The translations under genes were made by a program, and so were the position numbers. Positions 1,919 to 62,396 of a stretch of DNA of 64,000 bases are shown piece by piece. Source of the stretch: Escherichia coli (lineage in GTDB: Bacteria > Pseudomonadota > Gammaproteobacteria > Enterobacterales > Enterobacteriaceae); assembly GCF_024298765.1 (NCBI RefSeq), contig NZ_CP101210.1, one strand, 5' to 3'. The notes below the pieces were generated by a model. The model made no database searches. It was not told where the DNA came from and worked only from the letters and a program-made list of their open reading frames with translations. Each line of letters begins with the position of its first letter. Position 1 is the first letter of the stretch.

Positions 1919-3271
1919 TTACTGCCCGGCGATTTTCATCTCCGGCAACAGCACAGAACCACACTGTATATTACTGCGTGTTTCAATATCGTTACCGACG
2001 GTGACAATATTGCGCCACATATCTTTTAAATTACCTGCGATGGTGATTTCGCTAACCGGATACTGAATTTCGCCATTCTCTACCCAGAAGCCCGCTGCAC
2101 CACGGGAATAATCACCGGTAATGGCACTCACGCCCTGGCCCATCAGCTCCGTCACCACCAGCCCGGTGCCCATCTCTTTGAGCATTTGTTCGAAGCTTAG
2201 CCCTTGTCCGGCAATCCGCCAGTTGTGAATACCGCCCGCATGTCCGGTGCTTTTCAGCCCCAGTTTCCGCGCCGAGTAGCTGGTCAGCAGCCACTGAGTC
2301 AGGATGCCATCTTTAATAATATCGCGACGCTCGGTGCGCACACCTTCGCTGTCGAATGGCGTAGAGGCCAGCCCTTTCAGCAGATGCGGATGCTCTTCAA
2401 TGGTCAGCCAGTCCGGCAGAATTTGTTTACCCAGCGAATCCAGCAGGAAGGTAGATTTACGGTAAACCGATCCACCCGCTATCGCCCCCACCAGATGCCC
2501 AAAAAGCCCGGTTGCCACTTCATTGGCAAAAATGACCGGCGCTTTCATGGTGGAGAGTTTACGCGGTGACAGACGCGATAAAGTGCGGCGAGCACAGTCG
2601 GCCCCGACCCACTCTGGCGTTTGCAGATCGCTCATCGCACGACCAATGGTGTAGGCGTAATCACGCTCCATATCGCCATTTTCTTCGGCAATTACACAGC
2701 TGGAGAGCGAATGACGCGTAGAGCAGTAACCCTGCAACATGCCGTGGCTGTTGCCAAAAACTTTGACACCGTAGTGGCTGTTAAAGCTGCCACCTTCGGT
2801 ATTGGTGATGCGTTTGTCCGCCTGCAATGCTGCCTGTTCTGCGCGGGCCGCCAGTTCAATGGCTTCATCCGGGGAAACTTCCGCAGGGTGGAACAAGTCG
2901 AGATCCGGTGCGTCAAAGGCCAGCAGCTCTTTGTCTGCCACGCCGGCACAGGGATCTGGCGAGGTATAACGGGCAATATCTAGCGCCGCCTGTACGGTGC
3001 GGGCAATGGCCTGCGGGCTTAAATCGGTAGACGATGCGCTACCTTTGCGGTTCTGGTGATAAACAGTGATCCCCAACGCGCCATCGCTATTGAATTCAAC
3101 ATTCTCCACTTCACCATAACGCGTGCTTACGCTAATGCCGGTGGTCTTGCTGACGGCAACTTCTGCACCGTCCGATTTGCCTGAGGCCAACTCCAGCGCA
3201 GTCGAAACTGCTTCTTCCAGAATCTTGCGCTGCGCTTCAACTTGAGAGATTACTTTCATTGCAAGTGCCAT
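1919..3271 (-). CDS. pmbA: Metalloprotease PmbA/TldE
   Basis: 450 aa ORF; conserved position between cybC and yjgA. Confidence 0.92.
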
Positions 3272-3364
3272 AATGTAGAGAGTTTCTCTGAAGTCTAACA
3301 GAGAACCGTTTTTCAGTGCGCATCTTAACTGGTAACATTAGCCTCTTTTTTTAAGGAGCCTGAG

Positions 3365-3916
3365 ATGACTAAGCAGCCCGAAGACTGGCTCGACGACGTT
3401 CCCGGTGATGACATCGAAGACGAAGACGATGAAATTATCTGGGTCAGTAAAAGTGAAATTAAACGCGATGCCGAGGAGCTAAAACGCCTTGGCGCGGAAA
3501 TTGTTGATCTGGGGAAAAACGCGCTGGATAAGATCCCGTTAGATGCGGATCTGCGCGCGGCTATTGAGCTCGCCCAGCGTATTAAGATGGAAGGTCGCCG
3601 CCGCCAGTTGCAGCTCATCGGTAAGATGCTGCGCCAGCGCGATGTTGAGCCTATTCGTCAGGCGCTGGATAAGCTGAAAAACCGCCACAACCAGCAAGTG
3701 GTGTTGTTCCATAAACTGGAAAACCTGCGCGATCGTCTGATCGAGCAAGGTGATGACGCCATCGCTGAAGTATTGAATCTGTGGCCCGATGCCGATCGTC
3801 AGCAACTGCGTACTCTGATCCGTAACGCGAAGAAAGAGAAAGAAGGGAATAAGCCGCCGAAATCCGCGCGCCAGATTTTCCAGTATCTGCGTGAGTTAGC
3901 GGAAAACGAAGGGTAA
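3365..3916 (+). CDS. yjgA: Ribosome-associated DUF615 protein YjgA (DarP)
   Basis: 183 aa acidic/basic ORF divergent from pmbA. Confidence 0.88.
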
Positions 3917-3942
3917 TTTTCGTTGTTGATGTGAGTATGGTT

Positions 3943-4047
3943 TGCCGGATGCGGTGCACCTGTAGGCCTGATAAGACGCATCAAGCGTCGCATCAGGCAC
4001 TATGCTCAAATGCCGGATGCGGCGTGAACGCCTTATCCGGCCTACAC
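3943..4047. repeat. REP/BIME cluster
   Basis: GCCGGATGCGG...CCTTATCCGGCCTACA units plus GGCCTGATAAGACGC...GCGTCGCATCAGGC unit. Confidence 0.8.
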
Positions 4048-4073
4048 ACACTCTATCAGGCTGAGGCTGTGAA

Positions 4074-5447
4074 TTACTGCGCGGCTTCCGCTTTCTTCGC
4101 TAACCCATCCAGCAGTTTCTGATGGATCCCACCAAAACCGCCGTTACTCATCACCAGAATGTGATCGCCCGGCTGAGCGGTTTTCACCACCATATCTGCC
4201 AGCGTATCCACATCGCCGCTCCAGTGTGCAGGCTGAACGCAGGCTTCTGCCACTTCTGCCACCTGCCACGGAATATGCGCCGGTTGCAGCAGGAAGACTT
4301 CATCGGCACGACCTAATGAAGGTGCCAGATCGTCTTTGCAGATCCCCATTTTCATGGTGTTTGAGCGCGGTTCCAGCACGGCAATAATGCGCGCCGTACC
4401 ACCAACTTTGCCACGCAGCGCCGCAAGCGTTGCCAGAATCGCCGTCGGGTGATGGGCAAAATCGTCATATACCGTCACACCATTCGCTTCACCACGCAAC
4501 TCCAGACGGCGACGAGCATTAATAAACGAACCCAGCGCGTTAGCGGCATCTGCCGGCGCTACACCAACATGGCGAGCCGCCGCAATCGCCATCAGGCCAT
4601 TGTGCATATTATGTTCGCCTACCAGCGACCATTTCACTTCGCCCACTTTTTCGCCATCCAGCAAGACTTCCCATTCGGAAGCATCGGTGGTCAGCTTTTT
4701 CGCCTGCCAGTGACCTTGCTCGCCCACCAGCTCCTGCTCGCTCCAGCAGCCCATCGCCATGGTCTGTTTCAGGTTGATGTCATTTTCCGGCCAGATAATA
4801 CGGCCCTGCCCCGGAACGATACGCACCAGATGGTGGAACTGTTTCTGGATCGCTTTCAGGTCGTCAAAGATATCGGCGTGATCGAACTCAAGGTTGTTGA
4901 GGATCAGCGTACGCGGGCAGTAATGGACAAATTTAGAGCGTTTGTCGAAGAAGGCGCAGTCATACTCATCCGCTTCGATAACAAAGAAGTCGCTTTCGCC
5001 CAGACGCGCCGAAACCTCAAAGTTCCCCGGCACACCGCCGATCACAAATCCCGGTTTGTAACCGCACTGTTCCAGAATCCAGGTTGCCATTCCCGCGGTG
5101 GTGGTTTTGCCATGTGTACCGGCAACGGCCAGCACCCAGCGGTCGCGCAGCACAAAATCGTGCAGCCACTGCGGACCTGACATATAAGGGATGTTTTTTT
5201 CCAGTACCGCTTCCACACACGGATTTCCACGGGTCATGGCGTTACCAATAATCACCAGATCCGGCTGTGGATCGAGCTGGCTGGCATCGTAACCCTGAAT
5301 CAGTTCAATGCCTTGCTTCTCAAGTAAGGTGCTCATCGGCGGATACACATTGGCGTCCGAACCCGTTACTTCATGGCCTAACTGGCGCGCCAGCATCGCC
5401 AGACCGCCCATAAACGTGCCACAAATTCCTAAAATATGAATGCGCAT
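4074..5447 (-). CDS. mpl: UDP-N-acetylmuramate:L-alanyl-gamma-D-glutamyl-meso-diaminopimelate ligase (murein peptide ligase)
   Basis: 457 aa ORF with Mur ligase P-loop (GTHGKTTT). Confidence 0.92.
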   Translation of the reverse strand: MRIHILGICGTFMGGLAMLARQLGHEVTGSDANVYPPMSTLLEKQGIELIQGYDASQLDPQPDLVIIGNAMTRGNPCVEAVLEKNIPYMSGPQWLHDFVLRDRWVLAVAGTHGKTTTAGMATWILEQCGYKPGFVIGGVPGNFEVSARLGESDFFVIEADEYDCAFFDKRSKFVHYCPRTLILNNLEFDHADIFDDLKAIQKQFHHLVRIVPGQGRIIWPENDINLKQTMAMGCWSEQELVGEQGHWQAKKLTTDASEWEVLLDGEKVGEVKWSLVGEHNMHNGLMAIAAARHVGVAPADAANALGSFINARRRLELRGEANGVTVYDDFAHHPTAILATLAALRGKVGGTARIIAVLEPRSNTMKMGICKDDLAPSLGRADEVFLLQPAHIPWQVAEVAEACVQPAHWSGDVDTLADMVVKTAQPGDHILVMSNGGFGGIHQKLLDGLAKKAEAAQ

Positions 5448-5622
5448 ACGTCACTATCCTTTTTTAATCTGGCGCTCATTTTACGCATATGTCGGGCAAG
5501 TGAGAAACGCATTTCAGGATAATCCGTAATTTGCTGGCGCGATTCACCTGAGCGCAACATTGGGATTATTTGTTAAGATTGTTGCGGTCGCTTTACTCCA
5601 TAAACATTGCAGGGAAAGTTTT

Positions 5623-8671: not shown

Positions 8672-10174
8672 TTACGCCGCAATGGCGTTCATGATCGCCG
8701 GAACGGAAAGCTCTGCCAGCGGGATCTCCGCCACCTGTTTGCGATCGCGCATGATAATCACCCGATCGGCATAGCCCACCAGCTCTTCCAGCTCGGAGGA
8801 GATCACCAGCAGCGCCAGCCCATCGGCGCACAGCGTTTCAATCAGGCGGATGATCTCGGCGTGGGCACCAACATCAATTCCGCGCGTTGGCTCGTCGAGA
8901 ATCAGAAATTGCGGTCGGGTCAGTAGCCAACGTGAAAGCAACACTTTTTGCTGATTGCCGCCGGAGAGAAATTCAATCGGTTGTTCGGTGGAAGGTGTGC
9001 GAATGCCAAGCTGGCGGATAAAGCGTTCGGCAATCTCTTGCTGTTCTTTACGGGAAATAGGTCGTAGCCAGCCGCGCTGGGCCTGGAGAGCGAGGATGAT
9101 ATTTTCCCGCACCGAGGCGGCGGCGATAATGCCATCGGTTTTCCTGTCTTCCGGGCAGAAGCCAATGCCCAGTACCGAAGCCTGATGTGGCGAGCGTAGC
9201 GTTTGCAGTTTGCCTTTGATCAACGCCGTGCCGCTATCAGCAGGTTTGATACCGAAGATCACTTCGGCGGTTTCGGTACGTCCTGATCCCAGCAAGCCTG
9301 CCAGACCGACGATCTCGCCGGGGCGTACTTCGAGATCAAACGGCGCGATCGTTCCTTTTTTGCCGTAATTTTTGAACGCGGCAACAGGTTTGTCGCTCAG
9401 CAATGTTCTCCCGGCACGCTGAAGCGCGTGGGTGTCCAGTTCACGCCCCAGCATCATTTTTACCAGTTCGATCTGCGGTAGCTCGCGGGTTTCCCGACAG
9501 CCCACAAAACTGCCGTTACGTAAGACGGTGATCCGATCGCTGACCTGATAGACCTGATCGAGAAAGTGAGTGACGAAGATCAGACTGACGCCGCGATCGC
9601 GAAGCTGACGCATCAGGCCAAACAGTAACTCTACTTCCTGAGTGTCGAGACTGGCGGTGGGTTCATCGAGGATCAGCACTTTGGCGGAGAGATCGATAGC
9701 CCGGCAAATGGCGACGATTTGCTGCATCGCGACTGAAAAGCGGTTGAGCGGTTCGCGCACGTCGAGGGAGAAACCGTAAGATGCCATCAGTTCGGTGGCG
9801 CGCTTTTCTATCTCTTTACGGCGTAGAAGGCCGAAACGTTTGGGTTCGCGACCTATGAATAGATTATCAGCGACCGACATATTGGGTAGCAGGTTGACTT
9901 CCTGATAGACGGTGCCGATGCCGAGTTGTTGTGCGTGGGCGGTGTTTTTCGGTGAGATAGCCTGGCCTTCCAGCCAGATAGTGCCGCGATCGGCGTGGTA
10001 TACACCGGTTAATGCTTTGATGAGCGTCGATTTTCCCGCCCCGTTTTCACCGAGCAGCGCCATGATTTCACCACGGCGCAGGCTGAAATCAACGTTGTCT
10101 AACGCTTTGACACCGGGGAAAAATTTACTTAATCCTTCGGTGCGGAGGATTTCCTGGTGTTGGTCGGTCGTCAT
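8672..10174 (-). CDS. ytfR: Sugar ABC transporter ATP-binding protein (duplicated ABC domains)
   Basis: 500 aa ORF with two Walker A motifs (GENGAGKST and GLLGSGRTE) and two LSGG signatures. Confidence 0.92.
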   Translation of the reverse strand: MTTDQHQEILRTEGLSKFFPGVKALDNVDFSLRRGEIMALLGENGAGKSTLIKALTGVYHADRGTIWLEGQAISPKNTAHAQQLGIGTVYQEVNLLPNMSVADNLFIGREPKRFGLLRRKEIEKRATELMASYGFSLDVREPLNRFSVAMQQIVAICRAIDLSAKVLILDEPTASLDTQEVELLFGLMRQLRDRGVSLIFVTHFLDQVYQVSDRITVLRNGSFVGCRETRELPQIELVKMMLGRELDTHALQRAGRTLLSDKPVAAFKNYGKKGTIAPFDLEVRPGEIVGLAGLLGSGRTETAEVIFGIKPADSGTALIKGKLQTLRSPHQASVLGIGFCPEDRKTDGIIAAASVRENIILALQAQRGWLRPISRKEQQEIAERFIRQLGIRTPSTEQPIEFLSGGNQQKVLLSRWLLTRPQFLILDEPTRGIDVGAHAEIIRLIETLCADGLALLVISSELEELVGYADRVIIMRDRKQVAEIPLAELSVPAIMNAIAA

Positions 10175-55771: not shown

Positions 55772-57415
55772 TTACAAACACACTCCTCCCGTCGCCCGCA
55801 GCAATAAATCATTCTGGATCTGCTCTGACAACCGTACGCCGCCGCGCGTATCTAACATCACCTGACACCACGCCTGCGCCATTGGCGGAGAGGCATATTT
55901 CAACATTTGCGCACCGCAGCCCAGCAGGAATAGCTGATGAGTAATCTCTCGCCCCAGTTCTTCAGCAGGCTTACGCAGCTGCTGCTGTAAACGACGAACC
56001 GCGCGATCAAAATAGCGATCCTGCCCTTTCACTTCCACAAATGCTTCCGACAATAAGTCGTATACACCCGCTTGCTTATTGAGCACGCGCAGTACATCCA
56101 GGCACATAATATTACCGGAACCTTCCCAAATACTGTTTACCGGCATCTCCCGGTAAAGCCGCGGCAGCTCGCTCTCCTCGCAATAACCAATGCCACCCAG
56201 CACCTCCATCGCTTCGGCCACAAACGGCATACCTCGTTTGCAGATCACAAATTTCGCCGCAGGCGTAAATAAACGCGCCCACAGGGCTTCTTTGGCATCG
56301 GCACGCCGGTCCCAGGCTCGCGCAAGACGAAACAGCAACGCCGTTTGCCCTTCAAGCTGAAGTGCCATGCGACTTAAGACATGACGCATAAGGGGCTGTT
56401 GGATCAATGGATTACCAAAAACATGGCGTTGATGTGCATGATAAATCGCTAGCGAAAATGCACGGCGCATCATGGCATGGCTACCCAGGGCGCAATCAAA
56501 ACGCGTCATCCCACCCATTTTCAGGATCAGACGAACTCCTTCCCCTTCCTGCCCCAACAACCAGCCAATGGCATCCTGAAACTCCACTTCGCAGCTGGCG
56601 TTAGAGCGATTACCCAGCTTATCTTTCAGCCGCTCGAGGCGAATCGCGTTGCGTTGCCCGTCAGGCAAAAAGCGCGGCACAAAAAAGCAGGACAAACCGC
56701 CCGTAGTCTGCGCCAGCACCAGATGCGCATCGCTTTGCGGCACCGAGAAAAACCATTTATGCCCCACCAGCCGATAAGAGCCATCTTCCAGGCGCTCTGC
56801 GCGGGTGGTGTTGCTCATGACATCGGAACCGCCCTGCTTTTCCGTCATTCCCATGCCAATCAACAAACCGCGTTTTTGCCCACCTGGCAATAAGTGAGAA
56901 TCGTAGCGATCGCTCAACAGCGGCGTGGTCCAGTCCTGAAACGGCGCGGGTAACATCTGTAACAGCAATGGCGTGGCGGCAAAGGTCATCGTTATCGGAC
57001 ATAACGACCCTGCCTCAACCTGTGCGTGCAACATAAAACGTGCCGCGCGCGCCACAAATGCGCCGGAGCGAGCGTCTTCTTCCCAGGCAAGATTGTGCAC
57101 CCGATTGGTACATAGCGCCTGCATCAGCAGGTGCCAGGCGGGGTGAAAACGCACATCGTCCAGACGCCGCCCCTGGGCATCGTAGCGCAATAATTCAGGC
57201 GGATTCACATTCGCCAGCCGCCCCAGTTCAAGGGATTCAGCCGTCCCTAACTGCTGACCAATACTGGCTAGAAAATCGCTATCCCAGCCAGCACCTTCAC
57301 GCGTTACCGCTTCGCAGAGCGCGCCATCAGACAGGTATAAGTTGCTGTTATTTAATGGTATAGGTTGATTAAAAACGGTGTGAGTTTGCCAGTGCACTGT
57401 GTCTCCCTCCATCAA
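55772..57415 (-). CDS. aidB: Acyl-CoA dehydrogenase-family protein AidB (adaptive response)
   Basis: 547 aa ORF; exact start uncertain (possibly a few codons downstream). Confidence 0.9.
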   Translation of the reverse strand: MMEGDTVHWQTHTVFNQPIPLNNSNLYLSDGALCEAVTREGAGWDSDFLASIGQQLGTAESLELGRLANVNPPELLRYDAQGRRLDDVRFHPAWHLLMQALCTNRVHNLAWEEDARSGAFVARAARFMLHAQVEAGSLCPITMTFAATPLLLQMLPAPFQDWTTPLLSDRYDSHLLPGGQKRGLLIGMGMTEKQGGSDVMSNTTRAERLEDGSYRLVGHKWFFSVPQSDAHLVLAQTTGGLSCFFVPRFLPDGQRNAIRLERLKDKLGNRSNASCEVEFQDAIGWLLGQEGEGVRLILKMGGMTRFDCALGSHAMMRRAFSLAIYHAHQRHVFGNPLIQQPLMRHVLSRMALQLEGQTALLFRLARAWDRRADAKEALWARLFTPAAKFVICKRGMPFVAEAMEVLGGIGYCEESELPRLYREMPVNSIWEGSGNIMCLDVLRVLNKQAGVYDLLSEAFVEVKGQDRYFDRAVRRLQQQLRKPAEELGREITHQLFLLGCGAQMLKYASPPMAQAWCQVMLDTRGGVRLSEQIQNDLLLRATGGVCL

Positions 57416-57480
57416 TGGCAGTCACCATTAGTATGGTCACTGCCATGGATTCATGACAGAAAGAGATTGCTAAAACATTC

Positions 57481-58644
57481 TTATCCAGCAATGTAATGCG
57501 GAACGAAACGTGAGGTGTCTTTGGTGATCAGCGTGTTATCTTCACGGATCCCCATTCCGCACGCTTCATCATCGACAATCCAGCTACCGATGAGTGTGTA
57601 GCTATCGCCAAATCGCGGCAGAGGTTGAAACGCCTGGTAGATCATCGGTTCATCGGCGTAATCACCATCAGCGTGGTCAACAACGTTATTCTGACCGTCG
57701 AAAATGGTGACGTTTCCGCCTTCGCGCGAGTAAATCGGTTTACGCACATAGCTTTCGCCAGCGGCAATCTGCGGTTTTTCACCATCGAACCAGGATGCAA
57801 GAAGGTTAGGATGACCAGGGAAGAAGCGCCAAAGCAGCGGCATTAGCCCTTTATTACTCAAGATACTTTTCCATAACGGCTCCACCCATTGCTCGCGACG
57901 CTTGCGCAGCAGCGGACCGTTATCGTCACGCATCATCCACTCCAGCGGATACAGCTTAAATGCACGCTGGATGACATTATCATCAAGATCGGTCAGCACA
58001 CCGCCGACGCCCAAACCGAGATCTTCAATGTAGATAAACCGCGACTCCTGCCCTGCCTGCTCGGCGCAGTCCTGCAAGTACAGCACGGTACTCCTGTCTT
58101 CGTCGGTGTCCTGACAGCAGCAAAAATAAAACGGTTCCCGACTGTAAAGCTCGCTAAAGCGTGAAATCAGGCGCTCCTGAATGGCATTGTACTGATCGGC
58201 ATCGCGCGGAATAACGCCGCTGCGCCGGGCATCTTCCAGCCACAACCACTGGAAATAAGCCGACTCGTACAATGAAGTTGGCGTATCGGCGTTGTACTCC
58301 AGCAACTTAACCGGTGCATTACCACACCAGGCAAAATCCATACGGCCATACAACGAAGGATCGCGTGCGCGCCAGCTTTCGGCGATCACATCCCAGTACA
58401 ACGGCGGGATCGCCAGTTGCGTCAGGATCTCTTCGTCTTTAACCGCGCGATCCACCACCTCAAGGCACATCTGATGCAGTTCCGCAGTCGGTTTTTCGAT
58501 CTGCTCTTCAATCTGGCGCAGAGTAAAACGGTAAGCTCGACTCTCGTCCCAATAGATTTCATTGTCGATGATATGAAAGTCGAAACCGTTGTCAGCGGCG
58601 ATCTGGTCCAGATCCCGCCGTACAGGAACGTTGTGTCTCAGCAT
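57481..58644 (-). CDS. yjfC: Glutathionylspermidine synthase-like ATP-grasp protein
   Basis: Start at MLRHNVPVRRDLDQ (387 aa); last gene of the yjfI-yjfC cluster. Confidence 0.88.
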   Translation of the reverse strand: MLRHNVPVRRDLDQIAADNGFDFHIIDNEIYWDESRAYRFTLRQIEEQIEKPTAELHQMCLEVVDRAVKDEEILTQLAIPPLYWDVIAESWRARDPSLYGRMDFAWCGNAPVKLLEYNADTPTSLYESAYFQWLWLEDARRSGVIPRDADQYNAIQERLISRFSELYSREPFYFCCCQDTDEDRSTVLYLQDCAEQAGQESRFIYIEDLGLGVGGVLTDLDDNVIQRAFKLYPLEWMMRDDNGPLLRKRREQWVEPLWKSILSNKGLMPLLWRFFPGHPNLLASWFDGEKPQIAAGESYVRKPIYSREGGNVTIFDGQNNVVDHADGDYADEPMIYQAFQPLPRFGDSYTLIGSWIVDDEACGMGIREDNTLITKDTSRFVPHYIAG

Positions 58645-58646
58645 GA

Positions 58647-59285
58647 TTAGCCTCCCCAATGCCCACGGGCGCTGGAAGAACGACCATAGCCGCCGCGGGA
58701 AACGGTTGACACTTTTTTGGTGGTAAAGCCGCCCGAAGAGTAAGACTCTTTTTTGCCAGAACCGGAGCGCCAGGAGTAATCACCAGAAGTGTTGCGCCAG
58801 ACGGGGCGCGAAGCAAATGAGGATCCGCCGCTGTTATAGACGAACGGCTCATCGCGATCTTTACGAATAACCCGGCTTAACAAAAATCCAGAAACGACCG
58901 GGATCCAACTCTGTTCAACATTGTCGTAGTAGCAATTTTCGTACTTAGACTGACAATTCTGCTGAGTCATATTCTTCGGAACATCGGCATAAAACGCCGC
59001 TTTGGCGTTGTTCCAGCCACGCGCGCAAATGTCTGCATTATTACCGTCATCAATACAATCCTGCACAGTCGCGTAAAACGTTCCGTCGCCGTCGTTATCG
59101 ACATCGCCACTATCTCCACAACCTTTCAATACGAAAAAAGCGGCACCGCCCATTAGCGCCAACGTTAAGTATTTTTGTGCGTAGCGATTGCGGCGCGGCT
59201 CAAAAGGATTATGCGGTCTACCAATGCGACTGATTGCCCCATGTCCGATATTTTTGTTATTTCTGGATTTGCGTTTTCTGGCCAT
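58647..59285 (-). CDS. yjfM: DUF1190 protein YjfM
   Basis: 212 aa; Gly/Ser-rich C-terminus, one TM segment. Confidence 0.88.
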   Translation of the reverse strand: MARKRKSRNNKNIGHGAISRIGRPHNPFEPRRNRYAQKYLTLALMGGAAFFVLKGCGDSGDVDNDGDGTFYATVQDCIDDGNNADICARGWNNAKAAFYADVPKNMTQQNCQSKYENCYYDNVEQSWIPVVSGFLLSRVIRKDRDEPFVYNSGGSSFASRPVWRNTSGDYSWRSGSGKKESYSSGGFTTKKVSTVSRGGYGRSSSARGHWGG

Positions 59286-59294
59286 GATCGTCCA

Positions 59295-59693
59295 TTACCA
59301 TGTCATACAAGCTGCGTTAAAAATACCGCCAGCCAGCGCGGCGGTTCCCATAAACATTCCTGCTGCGGTATTGTGATTAATAATTTTTTCGCTTAATGCG
59401 GGCATATAAAGCCTGACGCCAGCAAAAACGAGTAATTGAATCACCAGAGCAATCCCGCCCCATGCGAAATAGTCTGGAATACTCACCGCATTGATTGCCG
59501 CACTGGATAAGGGGATCACGTACCCCAACAATGTTCCGCTGAACGCCAGTGCCGCCGCGGTGTTATTATTTTTGATTAACTGCCATTCGTTGTGCGGTGT
59601 AATTTTGGAGTAGATAAACAGAAAAATAATCACCATAGCCACGCCAATAAAAAAATAAGCGCTAAAGGCAAGAAATGAATCCAGTATATGCAT
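59295..59693 (-). CDS. yjfL: DUF350 inner-membrane protein YjfL
   Basis: Start at MHILDSFLAFSAYFF (132 aa), four predicted TM helices. Confidence 0.85.
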   Translation of the reverse strand: MHILDSFLAFSAYFFIGVAMVIIFLFIYSKITPHNEWQLIKNNNTAAALAFSGTLLGYVIPLSSAAINAVSIPDYFAWGGIALVIQLLVFAGVRLYMPALSEKIINHNTAAGMFMGTAALAGGIFNAACMTW

Positions 59694-59710
59694 CGTAAAC
59701 GTCCTTGTAA

Positions 59711-60370
59711 TTAACCAATAATATGAAGTGATGTCAGCGGGATATCGACCCCCAGCGCGCGCGAAAATAACCACTCCGGCTCGCCGAGATCATTAAAAGA
59801 TTCCTCACCATTTAACAGCAGATATTCGTAAGTATCTTCGGTCACTTGCCGTTGATAGCCCATGGTAAAATTATGGACCTCCCATTTGGCATGGTTTTGA
59901 TTTTCTACTTTTTCCAGCATGTAGACGGGTTCGATATTTCCCGGTTCTTCGCTATTAAAAAATCGCTGCCAGCGTTTTTCCTGCCAGTTTAAGGTCATTG
60001 CCCCCATCGCTTTGGCATTGATCGCCTCGCGCCAGTGACTCTCTTTACTGATACCGTAGCTCTCTTCATAGACAAAGAGCTTGATATCATCAATGTCATC
60101 AATATCTTCGCCGCCAGTGGTATTGATTTGCAGAAACTCATCGCCTGAAGTGTAGTAGCGGAAAATCTGGCTACCGCCGCCCAGATCGATGCGGCTGACA
60201 GCGGCTACCGTAAATTCCTCACCCGGCAGCGCAATCAGCAATTCATCTTCCAGCAAACGAAACGCTAACGTGTCGAGCGTAAAGCCACTATTGAGATGAA
60301 GTCCCAGAGGACCGCGAGCGATAGCAGGCTTATTATCCTTGCCAAACAGACGCTGGAAAAAACCAGACAT
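59711..60370 (-). CDS. yjfK: DUF2491 protein YjfK
   Basis: 219 aa ORF. Confidence 0.88.
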   Translation of the reverse strand: MSGFFQRLFGKDNKPAIARGPLGLHLNSGFTLDTLAFRLLEDELLIALPGEEFTVAAVSRIDLGGGSQIFRYYTSGDEFLQINTTGGEDIDDIDDIKLFVYEESYGISKESHWREAINAKAMGAMTLNWQEKRWQRFFNSEEPGNIEPVYMLEKVENQNHAKWEVHNFTMGYQRQVTEDTYEYLLLNGEESFNDLGEPEWLFSRALGVDIPLTSLHIIG

Positions 60371-60419
60371 ATTTTATCCTTAAAATAGTTGCCAGCCTTG
60401 CAGTGAGGCTGGCAAAAAA

Positions 60420-61118
60420 TTACTCGCCCTGTTGGCGTTGCAGTCTTGCTAATACATCCTGGGCGCTACTTTTATTGCTACCGCCAATTCCGGCTTCCGC
60501 CAGCTTTTCATCAAGATCGCGACCGTCTGCGACTTTTTCCAACTGTGCGGCAGCATCCAGGCGAGCCTGACGTTCGGCCTGACGCGTTTGCAGGCGTTTT
60601 AAGGATTCTGCCGCTGTCGAAACGCTGGAAGATGCGCCAACGGTAGAGGTCGTTACAGCCTGTTGTGCACGCTGCATGGCTTCAGTAGCTTTAACGACTT
60701 CCATTTGCTGCTCAAACTGAGCGATACGCTGCGCTGTCGCTGTAACTGCTTTTTCCACGCCATCACGAGAGACTTCCAGATTCGACAACACTTGCTCTTC
60801 AGCGGTAATGAGATTCTCAAGGCGCGCGATTTCTTCAGCAACTTCGTTAATCAACGACGGATTAACGTTCTTGCTTAACGCTTCCAGCGCACGAGCTTCC
60901 AGACTGGCTTTGCGCTCACGTAAATCTTTCAGCTTATCGTGACTTAATTTCACCCGCGCCAGCAGATCAACGCGAGATTTTCCGGCTTTATCGAGTTCAG
61001 CTTTAGCGTCACGAATATGCTGTTCCAGCATGCGCACGCCCTGGGTTTCTTCAATGGATTCTTCCGCCTGGGAGATAAACGATTTCCCCAGCGTAAATAA
61101 ACTTTTTAAAATCCCCAT
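60420..61118 (-). CDS. yjfJ: PspA/IM30-family protein YjfJ
   Basis: 232 aa; extended coiled-coil-like sequence. Confidence 0.9.
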   Translation of the reverse strand: MGILKSLFTLGKSFISQAEESIEETQGVRMLEQHIRDAKAELDKAGKSRVDLLARVKLSHDKLKDLRERKASLEARALEALSKNVNPSLINEVAEEIARLENLITAEEQVLSNLEVSRDGVEKAVTATAQRIAQFEQQMEVVKATEAMQRAQQAVTTSTVGASSSVSTAAESLKRLQTRQAERQARLDAAAQLEKVADGRDLDEKLAEAGIGGSNKSSAQDVLARLQRQQGE

Positions 61119-61136
61119 AAATACCCGTCCTTGTAA

Positions 61137-61538
61137 TTAGTGTGAATATTCTTCTGTAATTTCAGCCAGATCCAATGCGTTATCTACCAGCGAGGTTATC
61201 TCAAGCAGGATATCTTCAAGAGAAGATTTAAGCGATAACGCACCGAAAACAATGTAATACTCTTCCTGTTGCACGCTGGAGATCCCTACCGATGACAATG
61301 GCATCATCTTCTGATTTCTTAATAAGAAGGTATTAAATTCATCTGTATTGCTGATACAACTTACCGGACAAATAAAGGTTTCGATAATCATTTGGCGGGA
61401 AGTAAATAGAATATTGATTTGCAAATCGCCATAATCATTCATTTTAATAATTAATGCGTTCTCGCTATTTGTTACATCAATATTTTGTTCAGGTACAGTT
61501 TGCAGCGCCGTCGCCAGCGCCAACGGATTCCATGTCAT
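61137..61538 (-). CDS. yjfI: DUF2170 protein YjfI
   Basis: 133 aa; first gene of the cluster. Confidence 0.88.
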   Translation of the reverse strand: MTWNPLALATALQTVPEQNIDVTNSENALIIKMNDYGDLQINILFTSRQMIIETFICPVSCISNTDEFNTFLLRNQKMMPLSSVGISSVQQEEYYIVFGALSLKSSLEDILLEITSLVDNALDLAEITEEYSH

Positions 61539-61618
61539 ATATTATTCCATATAAATTAAGTTTAAATATTAATAAAATGAATATTTGCAGTACGTAATTA
61601 TCTTACCAGCTATAGACA

Positions 61619-61649
61619 AAAAAAAACCATCCAAATCTGGATGGCTTTT
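61619..61649 (-). terminator. Rho-independent terminator downstream of rlmB (bidirectional in appearance)
   Basis: A8 - CCATCCA-AATC-TGGATGG - CTTTT. Confidence 0.7.
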
Positions 61650-61664
61650 CATAATTCAGAGGAA

Positions 61665-62396
61665 CTAGCTGCGCTGACGAACCGCTTCAAATAAGCAAAT
61701 TCCGGTTGCAACCGAAACGTTCAGGGAAGAAACACTTCCTGCCATTGGGATGCTGATCAACTCATCGCAATGTTCACGGGTCAGGCGACGCATACCTTCA
61801 CCTTCCGCGCCCATCACCAGCGCCAGGCGTCCGGTCATTTTGCTCTGATAGAGTGTATGATCCGCCTCGCCTGCCGTACCGACGATCCAGATATTCTCTT
61901 CCTGCAACATACGCATGGTGCGCGCCAGATTAGTCACCCGAATCAGCGGAACGCTTTCTGCCGCACCACAGGCCACTTTTTTCGCCGTGGCGTTGAGCTG
62001 TGCGGAGCGATCTTTCGGCACAATCACCGCATGAACACCAGCGGCGTCCGCGCTACGCAGGCACGCGCCGAGGTTGTGCGGATCGGTTACGCCGTCGAGG
62101 ATCAGCAGGAACGGTTGATCGAGCGAAGCGATCAGATCCGGCAGATCGTTTTCCTGATACTGCCGTCCTGGCTTCACACGAGCGATAATGCCCTGATGCA
62201 CGGCACCGTCGCTTTTCTCGTCGAGATATTGGCGGTTTGCCAACTGGATAACCACGCCCTGAGACTCAAGGGCGTGAATCAGCGGTAACAGACGTTTATC
62301 TTCACGGCCTTTTAAAATAAAGACTTCCTGAAAACGTTCAGGGGCGCGCTCCAGCAGGGCCTGCACTGCGTGGATGCCGTAAATCATTTCGCTCAT
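61665..62396 (-). CDS. rlmB: 23S rRNA (guanosine2251-2'-O)-methyltransferase (SpoU/TrmH family)
   Basis: 243 aa ORF immediately downstream of rnr. Confidence 0.93.

Follow-up and report, generated by a model that had tools for sequence, protein, structure and literature searches.

The gene cluster yjfI-J-K-L-M-C lies at positions 57481-61538 of a 64,000-nucleotide stretch of Escherichia coli DNA (contig NZ_CP101210.1), which as a whole is referred to here as the window. The most informative link within this cluster is the one between YjfC, an ATP-grasp peptide-spermidine ligase, and the C-terminal tail of YjfM, the DUF1190 protein encoded directly upstream of it. Based on sequence conservation and structural modeling, we propose that the YjfM tail is the natural partner of the ligase and probably its substrate, through spermidine amidation of the C-terminal glycine. 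As a finding, the cluster itself adds little, being textbook E. coli K-12 content; the genes and the operon class are already known, and what is new is the hypothesis that the YjfM tail is the natural partner of the ligase. This link was absent from a preliminary description of the cluster, made from the DNA letters and their open reading frames (ORFs). The same description called the genes largely uncharacterized, which is outdated given the ligase annotation and crystal structures of YjfC (PDB 7UK6 and 7UK7), the structure of the DUF2170 protein BacA (8Q8O) and the published operon class. Its coordinates and common strand were borne out, as six co-directional minus-strand genes fill exactly 57481-61538 and the same six are found in the RefSeq and K-12 annotations. 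All six of its domain calls hold as well, with Pfam scores far above the curated cut-offs.

The ligase YjfC and the tail of its DUF1190 neighbor

YjfC is a stand-alone glutathionylspermidine-synthetase-like ATP-grasp enzyme (GSP_synth, Pfam 5.9e-149, 496.7 bits). PDB entries 7UK6 and 7UK7 represent YjfC itself (2e-274), and its K-12 RefSeq product name is peptide--spermidine ligase. To our knowledge, YjfC and its E. coli relative YgiC are the only known peptide-spermidine ligases. The passages covered of two reports (PMC11762307, PMC12568646) describe ligation of spermidine to the C-termini of free peptides by YjfC in vitro and give the natural substrate of the enzyme as not known.

YjfC homologues were aligned, 80 species-level loci were fetched via the ligase and their ORFs were searched with profiles of the six proteins. 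Because the loci were chosen through the ligase, the set carries no bias with regard to DUF1190. Of the 80 ligase loci, 77 had a detected DUF1190 gene, in most cases directly upstream of the ligase gene, with a median spacing of 5.5 nt (63 of the 76 pairs on the same strand are no more than 30 nt apart). The three apparent exceptions, which seemed to carry L and C without M, also encode DUF1190-like ORFs. Two of these loci contain minimal forms that have lost the Cys-rich domain but still have the basic and hydrophobic N-terminal segment together with RGGFG and the terminal GG.

The minimal ORFs upstream of the ligase gene are found at 9215-9643 and 9752-9973, in tandem, in Bradyrhizobium viridifuturi (locus L071) and at about 3860-4230 in another proteobacterium (locus L080). 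All three lack the four-Cys domain. Their N-terminus is basic (MKRS... in two cases), they contain a hydrophobic segment, a linker rich in Ser and Gly and a GGFG motif, and they end in GGG-COOH.

With regard to architecture, 35 of the 80 loci contained M-C only (loci of the tolC-ygiBC type and alphaproteobacteria), 14 contained L-M-C and 26, plus one rearranged locus, contained I-J-K-L-M-C. In 45 of the 80, yjfL accompanies the M-C pair. Twenty-seven of these species-level loci, from several bacterial orders, share the gene order I-J-(K+ channel)-K-L-M-C, usually with gaps no longer than 30 nt; judged by this recurrence, the arrangement is far beyond chance. The I-J-K layer was observed in Alteromonadales, Vibrio, Marinomonas, Endozoicomonas, Pseudomonas and one Desulfurivibrionaceae genome. 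By gene content, the DUF1190-ligase pair is thus the invariant core, DUF350 the next layer and yjfIJK the outer layer. We also considered other proteins of the operon as ligase substrates, in particular YjfK, which often ends in glycine (IG, NG or HG). This was rejected because 52 of the 80 loci have the ligase but no YjfK, and a DUF1190-like gene is present in every one.

In YjfM (DUF1190, Pfam 5.2e-17, 63.1 bits compared with a cut-off of 22), a basic N-terminus is followed by a hydrophobic segment (signal or anchor) with a lipobox-like LKGC site, then by an acidic domain with four cysteines and a basic disordered tail. Invariant positions in the DUF1190 alignment are C77, C87, C111 and C118 and, within the tail, R197, G199 and G201. 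A first homologue search reached Enterobacteriaceae only; when 1.8 billion representative proteins were searched with a profile, a wider family of 573 DUF1190 members emerged. All 13 enterobacterial YjfM orthologues have the invariant end ...SRGG[YF]G...WGG-COOH. Among the 150 matches listed from the profile search, 107 of 140 newly retrieved proteins (family representatives at 50% identity) end in GG (63 in WGG and 17 in FGG), and most exceptions are fragments. For DUF1190 proteins encoded next to a ligase, GG ends were found in 68 of 77 and hydrophobic-GG ends in 64 of 77, compared with 3.1 and 0.5 expected from shuffling of the last 30 residues (maxima of 11 and 4 in 2,000 shuffles). An RGG[FY]G-like motif is present in 76 of the 77, positioned 8-41 residues from the C-terminus. 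The segment from motif to end contains 2.0% D+E and 15% K+R, and in 47 of 76 such tails the terminal alpha-carboxylate is the sole carboxylate.

To model the interaction of tail and enzyme, a 25-residue Gly/Ser linker was placed between YjfC and the C-terminal 40 residues of YjfM (173-212), and the construct was folded with AlphaFold2 (AF2) using 28 paired sequences. In the model, the linker is disordered and the enzyme part can be superposed on 7UK6 with a deviation of 0.9 Å. Residues 191-200 of YjfM (KVSTVSRGGY) form a beta strand with a mean predicted local distance difference test score (pLDDT) of 91, compared with 43-52 for the same tail residues when YjfM was modeled alone (60 sequences). 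As a prediction, this model supports a specific contact between YjfC and the tail through the conserved motif.

Two A6 runs are located in the yjfM tail region, at 58713-58718 and about 58751-58756. Many deposited E. coli sequences carry frameshifts at these A-runs (one cluster has 130 members), by which the RGGYG/WGG tail is lost; they may represent natural loss-of-function variants or assembly errors. DUF1190-ligase fusions, seen as 548-601-aa E. coli proteins (P0115, P0116 and P0166), were considered as Rosetta-stone evidence and rejected, as they are A-run frameshifts in the yjfM tail that read into yjfC.

The remaining genes, their junctions and transcription

YjfI belongs to DUF2170 (Pfam 4.6e-44) and matches the Pseudomonas aeruginosa DUF2170 protein BacA (PDB 8Q8O) at 1.5e-16. 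The fold of BacA has been solved and its interaction with BacB described (PMC10948618). In the passages covered of a comparative genomics study (PMC11237479), the YjfI family is assigned to the CesT/Tir-like type III secretion chaperone fold and paired with YjfJ-type PspA proteins. YjfJ is a PspA_IM30 protein over residues 2-232 (Pfam 5.3e-58, 196.7 bits compared with a cut-off of 33.9) and has been counted among the bacterial ESCRT-III members (PMC13051332). A phmmer search of the PDB returned no solved-structure relative of YjfJ, the solved PspA and Vipp1 chains being too distant, and for its fold the literature offers homology models only. YjfK is a soluble DUF2491 protein (Pfam 7.7e-71) for which a PDB sequence search found no relative. 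Its conserved residues are D33, R71, Y73, D76, Q81, W138, E153, R174, E182 and E189, with no conserved Cys or His among them. YjfL (DUF350, Pfam 6.2e-34) is annotated in K-12 as an inner membrane protein and has a conserved C-terminus, NAACMT[YW]. These four genes have been linked to heat: yjfIJKL forms an expression module, without yjfMC, that shows strong up-regulation after evolution of E. coli at 45 °C (PMC12492005), and plasmid-borne yjfIJKL results in faster growth at 42 °C (PMC11472167).

The window is of E. coli chromosomal origin. The 5-kb stretch around the cluster (57000-62000) is 100% identical to E. coli strain 104 and is carried by 5,425 of 5,426 complete E. coli genomes. Only 77 of these 5,425 genomes show at least 99% identity to the window over 57000-62000, while 5,327 fall in the 95-99% band; the allele of the window strain is a minority allele in E. 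coli. Coordinates of the genes and of further features are compiled in Table 1.

Table 1. Genes, tail codons and predicted RNA or promoter elements of the yjf cluster, in window coordinates
Feature	Position	Strand	Details
yjfI	61538-61137	minus	133 aa
yjfJ	61118-60420	minus	232 aa
yjfK	60370-59711	minus	219 aa
yjfL	59693-59295	minus	132 aa
yjfM	59285-58647	minus	212 aa
yjfC	58644-57481	minus	387 aa; start 2 nt past yjfM stop codon
YjfM K191-G201 codons (KVSTVSRGGYG)	58683-58715	minus	RGG[FY]G motif, predicted YjfC dock; motif in 76/77; AF2
YjfM W210-G211-G212-COOH codons	58650-58658	minus	proposed spermidine acceptor carboxylate; GG conservation
rlmB intrinsic terminator	61621-61650, T9 tract 61618-61626	minus	13-bp stem; terminator scan; RNA fold -16.9 kcal/mol, z -4.1; identical in K-12
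Candidate sigma-70 promoter of yjfI	61544-61572	minus	TTAATA-17-TGGAAT; hexamers from PMC3946193, located by eye
Hairpin in yjfJ-yjfK spacer	60389-60415	minus	10-bp GC-rich stem, weak T tail; fold -17.1 kcal/mol, z -3.0

The intergenic spacings, in yjfI-J-K-L-M-C order, are 18, 49, 17, 9 and 2 nt. An overlap of yjfK and yjfL had been predicted at first, which would need yjfL to start at the upstream GTG at 59774, as in the longest ORF. The RefSeq and K-12 annotations start yjfL at the ATG at 59693, leaving the 17-nt gap, and as this ATG is preceded by an AAGGA Shine-Dalgarno sequence and orthologues share the short length, the overlap is not real. An exact 14-nt repeat, TAATTACAAGGACG, comprising stop codon and Shine-Dalgarno sequence, makes up both the yjfI/yjfJ junction (61126-61139) and the yjfK/yjfL junction (59700-59713) on the minus strand; these are the two copies in the window, where 0.03 would be expected.

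In 19 of 5,426 complete E. coli genomes (e.g. EC42405), a 356-aa K+ channel family gene (Ion_trans_2) is located between yjfJ and yjfK. In this seven-gene variant, the channel start is the last base of yjfJ and the channel end overlaps yjfK by 4 nt. The arrangement matches that of Vibrio, Glaciecola and Pseudomonas. Positions 4500-5570 of locus L082 and 3070-4140 of locus L002 hold the channel gene. In place of the channel gene, the window and K-12 have a 49-50-nt spacer (window 60371-60419) containing a hairpin, whose stem is identical in the two and whose loop differs at three bases. Judged by its predicted fold, this hairpin is likely a partial terminator or attenuator.

Upstream of the cluster, rlmB ends in a strong intrinsic terminator, and the operon has been given as nsrR-rnr-rlmB-yjfIJ (PMC3946193). 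A consensus sigma-70 scan between rlmB and yjfI flagged no promoter, the published weak candidate included, and a sigma-54 site (TGGCAC-N5-TTGC-like) was not found in 61539-61665. The -10 element of the candidate promoter (TGGAAT, 61544-61549) ends only 5 nt before the yjfI ATG (61538), so that a transcript starting there would be leaderless or nearly so. In heat-evolved hypermutator strains, yjfIJKL is up-regulated by a 1-nt deletion reported to lie 80 bp upstream of yjfI (PMC12492005). Its position corresponds to the 3' end of the T9 tract at 61618-61626; this tract ends 81 nt before the ATG and is identical in K-12. The deletion may thus act by weakening the rlmB terminator and permitting rnr-rlmB read-through rather than as a promoter mutation.

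At the other end of the cluster, no terminator was found 3' of yjfC. The 83-nt yjfC-aidB spacer contains a very stable minus-strand stem-loop (57402-57466, -35.3 kcal/mol, z -5.1) without a U tract, which pairs with the aidB ribosome-binding region and could, based on its predicted fold, be an aidB regulatory structure or an RNA-stability element. Taken together, transcription would be leaky and tiered, with rnr-rlmB read-through and a local promoter driving yjfIJ and partial termination at the post-yjfJ hairpin lowering yjfKLMC expression. Expression is probably higher for yjfIJ than for yjfKL(MC), and co-transcription of all six genes in E. coli is putative. Such tiers agree with an expression module that comprises yjfIJKL without yjfMC.

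Explanations for the conserved pair and the cluster

As the best overall explanation we tentatively favor, with confidence somewhat short of even, a two-part modular envelope-stress system in which the C-terminal glycine of YjfM is amidated with spermidine by YjfC. In the first part, the PspA/ESCRT-III-type protein YjfJ would bind and stabilize the inner membrane, YjfI would be a CesT-like chaperone or regulator holding YjfJ, YjfL would be a membrane partner with four transmembrane (TM) segments and YjfK would serve as soluble adaptor. What is established for this part is the membership of the proteins in their families and the heat phenotype; we infer the individual roles by analogy from PspA-PspBC, LiaH-LiaI and BacA-BacB. 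The second part, yjfM and yjfC, would be the ancient, invariant core. Here, the cytoplasmic acid-amine ligase YjfC would have the product of the gene 2 nt upstream as its natural partner, bind the RGG[FY]G motif in its basic tail as predicted by the model, activate the hydrophobic-Gly-Gly-COOH carboxylate with ATP and amidate it with spermidine. Modification before or during export would result in an envelope protein with a polyamine-tipped cationic tail. This tail would act together with the PspA-type membrane protector and, ancestrally, with a K+ channel; a function as tethered polyamine channel blocker or as envelope attachment handle is purely speculative. The general form of the proposal is that DUF1190 proteins are dedicated ribosomal substrates on which the ligase docks at RGG[FY]G and caps the GG end with spermidine prior to export, which would constitute an undescribed bacterial C-terminal polyamination. 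In this general form we consider it rather doubtful.

The membrane-associated stress or modification system suggested in the preliminary description is consistent with published comparative genomics, as far as the passages covered go (PMC11237479), with phenotypes in the literature and with synteny. The part that does not stand is the treatment of the six genes as one indivisible unit. This also bears on the two-part proposal, since yjfMC lies outside the yjfIJKL expression module and M-C pairs exist without any PspA gene, so that the coupling of the two parts is loose.

Several further points weigh against spermidine amidation of the tail. The distance from motif to C-terminus is variable, ranging from 8 to 41 residues, and a Pseudomonas clade ends in SSS instead of GG (6 of 77); in this clade, co-variation of enzyme and tail is confounded by phylogeny. 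In the fusion model, the last five YjfM residues (G208-G212) have pLDDT values below 50 and the carboxylate is not placed in the active site.

The most serious of these points concerns topology. Members of the family share a conserved N-terminal MKR[ST]K motif followed by a hydrophobic segment, and 70 of 78 match a permissive lipobox pattern which, together with the four invariant Cys in the acidic domain, points to export. Compared with the canonical lipobox ([LVI][ASTVI][GAS]C after a signal-type hydrophobic segment), the LKGC site of YjfM has an atypical Lys at -2 and some relatives are without the Cys, while most YgiB-type members have the canonical L[AS][GA]C. YgiB has been called a predicted outer-membrane lipoprotein (PMC11762307), and vesicles of a tolA mutant were found to contain it. 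A two-TM topology of YjfM with a cytoplasmic tail, suggested by charge asymmetry (loop net -6.6, tail net +9.5), was largely rejected because residues 126-138 become part of the globular domain in AF2, as beta strands with a pLDDT of about 81-93, and the segment is short, with an only moderate Kyte-Doolittle (KD) hydropathy of about 1.0. The globular domain had no match in the PDB. As these residues are predicted to form beta strands rather than a second TM helix, the tail of mature YjfM is probably periplasmic, away from the ATP-dependent enzyme, and a cytoplasmic ligase would therefore have to act before or during export. Cytoplasmic modification ahead of Sec export has precedents in HMW1C and Aah.

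The best-surviving alternative is that YjfC acts on small soluble peptides or metabolites and that YjfM is a co-functioning envelope protein, such as a sensor, binder or export partner, with the GG end kept for another reason, for example as a periplasmic recognition or processing signal. We consider this unlikely. It fits the activity demonstrated for YjfC, which is on free peptides only in the passages covered, as well as the exported appearance of YjfM and YgiB next to an enzyme that needs ATP; further, AF2 leaves the terminal residues unplaced, and internal SWGG-like copies, which are present in longer DUF1190 tails, could be processing sites. However, the high-confidence, enzyme-dependent docking of RGGFG is left unexplained, as are the near-absence of non-terminal carboxylates in the tail and the retention of motif and GG end in the minimal DUF1190-like proteins encoded beside the ligase gene.

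Alternatively, the YjfM tail could be a docking or regulatory subunit, its motif recruiting or controlling YjfC at the membrane for another target, be it a protein, a lipid head group or a cell-wall precursor. The confident placement by AF2 of the motif only, 8-41 residues from the end, and not of the C-terminus would be expected in this case, and the universal pairing with tight gene spacing and the membrane segment as the other universally kept feature would be equally well accommodated. Still, the hydrophobic-GG-COOH end, which is the strongest conserved feature, would have no explanation and the topology problem would be the same as for a substrate. We therefore judge a purely docking role to be improbable.

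Finally, that the six genes are merely independent neighbors, namely yjfIJ at the end of the rnr-rlmB operon, with yjfKL and yjfMC as units of their own, would agree with the recorded operon nsrR-rnr-rlmB-yjfIJ (PMC3946193), the terminator-like hairpin after yjfJ, the restriction of the expression module to yjfIJKL (PMC12492005) and the many MC-only and LMC-only loci, but appears quite improbable in view of the I-J-(channel)-K-L-M-C order kept in 27 loci with short gaps, the abutting and overlapping channel gene junctions of the seven-gene E. coli variant and the same grouping reached by an independent study in the passages covered (PMC11237479).

Relation to known systems and implications

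The closest parallel to yjfMC is found in E. coli itself. In tolC-ygiB-ygiC (locus L049), the DUF1190 protein YgiB and the ligase YgiC are encoded in the same order and with tight spacing. YgiC shares 49% identity with YjfC in a structure-based alignment (YgiC structures 7UK8 and 7UKA), and the RGGFG motif is retained in YgiB, whose C-terminus reads SMGG. Unlike the yjf cluster, ygiBC sits behind tolC and has no PspA, DUF2170, DUF2491 or DUF350 partner. The YgiB tail also differs from that of YjfM in its motif-to-end length (23 compared with 11 residues), in ending in M-G-G rather than W-G-G and in carrying a single acidic residue immediately behind the motif. The two pairs act in parallel in tolC mutants, whose growth defect becomes worse when yjfMC and ygiBC are lost. 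According to work by Dhamdhere and Zgurskaya from 2010, this tolC ygiBC/yjfMC defect reportedly comes with PspA induction and NAD+ depletion.

With regard to the enzyme, E. coli Gss and trypanothione synthetase share the ATP-grasp fold of YjfC (Foldseek 1e-30, TM-score about 0.76, 24% identity; phmmer 1e-32 to 1e-38) and, as in our proposal for YjfC, activate a Gly carboxylate and amidate it with spermidine. Gss differs from YjfC (387 aa) in having an N-terminal amidase (CHAP) domain; the NCBIfam model of the bifunctional enzyme matches YjfC with 162.6 bits compared with a cut-off of 882, over its C-terminal part only. ATP-grasp enzymes that activate the C-terminal alpha-carboxylate of a protein and add an amine are known from RimK, which acts on ribosomal protein S6, and tubulin tyrosine ligase. 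These belong to other ATP-grasp subfamilies, however, and add amino acids instead of a polyamine. In chemical terms, C-terminal polyamination would have parallels in glutathionylspermidine and in the conjugates of spermidine with ubiquitin-like GG termini that have been reported from eukaryotes. YgiC makes no glutathionylspermidine according to the passages covered of PMC11762307.

As for the cluster as a whole, the passages covered of Ravi et al. (mSystems 2024, PMC11237479) describe a class in which a DUF2170-PspA dyad, an ATP-grasp ligase, DUF350, a DUF1190 lipoprotein and DUF2491 are co-directional, as in the window. This class differs from the window in its K+ channel with a cytoplasmic ligand-sensing (TrkA/RCK) domain, a gene which only 19 of 5,426 E. 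coli genomes have. The same passages do not mention a C-terminal motif of DUF1190 or a pairing of ligase and tail. The pspF-pspABCDE system and Bacillus LiaIH resemble the cluster in that a PspA/IM30 effector is encoded near a small membrane protein (PspB/C or a LiaI analogue). Unlike the classical Psp system, neither the cluster nor its neighbors rnr, rlmB and aidB encode PspF, PspB or PspC, the sigma-54 promoter of Psp has no counterpart upstream of yjfI and the yjf partner is a CesT-like chaperone. In case of the biofilm-associated cluster bacABCDEF of P. aeruginosa, the first two genes likewise encode a DUF2170 protein (BacA) and a PspA homologue (BacB). The bac operon was demonstrated by reverse transcription PCR, and BacA negatively controls the downstream proteins, which are de-repressed in a bacA mutant. 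In contrast to the yjf cluster, a sigma-54 promoter has been proposed for bac; YjfI reaches 93.8 bits compared with a cut-off of 300 on the BacA equivalog model, and the published bac cluster has not been described with a polyamine enzyme.

The location of ygiBC in the tolC operon makes these ligases relevant to efflux and antibiotic tolerance, and yjfIJKL raises heat tolerance. The conserved GG end together with the predicted docking motif offers a concrete and cheap test for the substrate of the ligases. If true, spermidine amidation of the YjfM tail would represent a new bacterial protein modification and provide a mechanistic link between polyamines and envelope stress protection.

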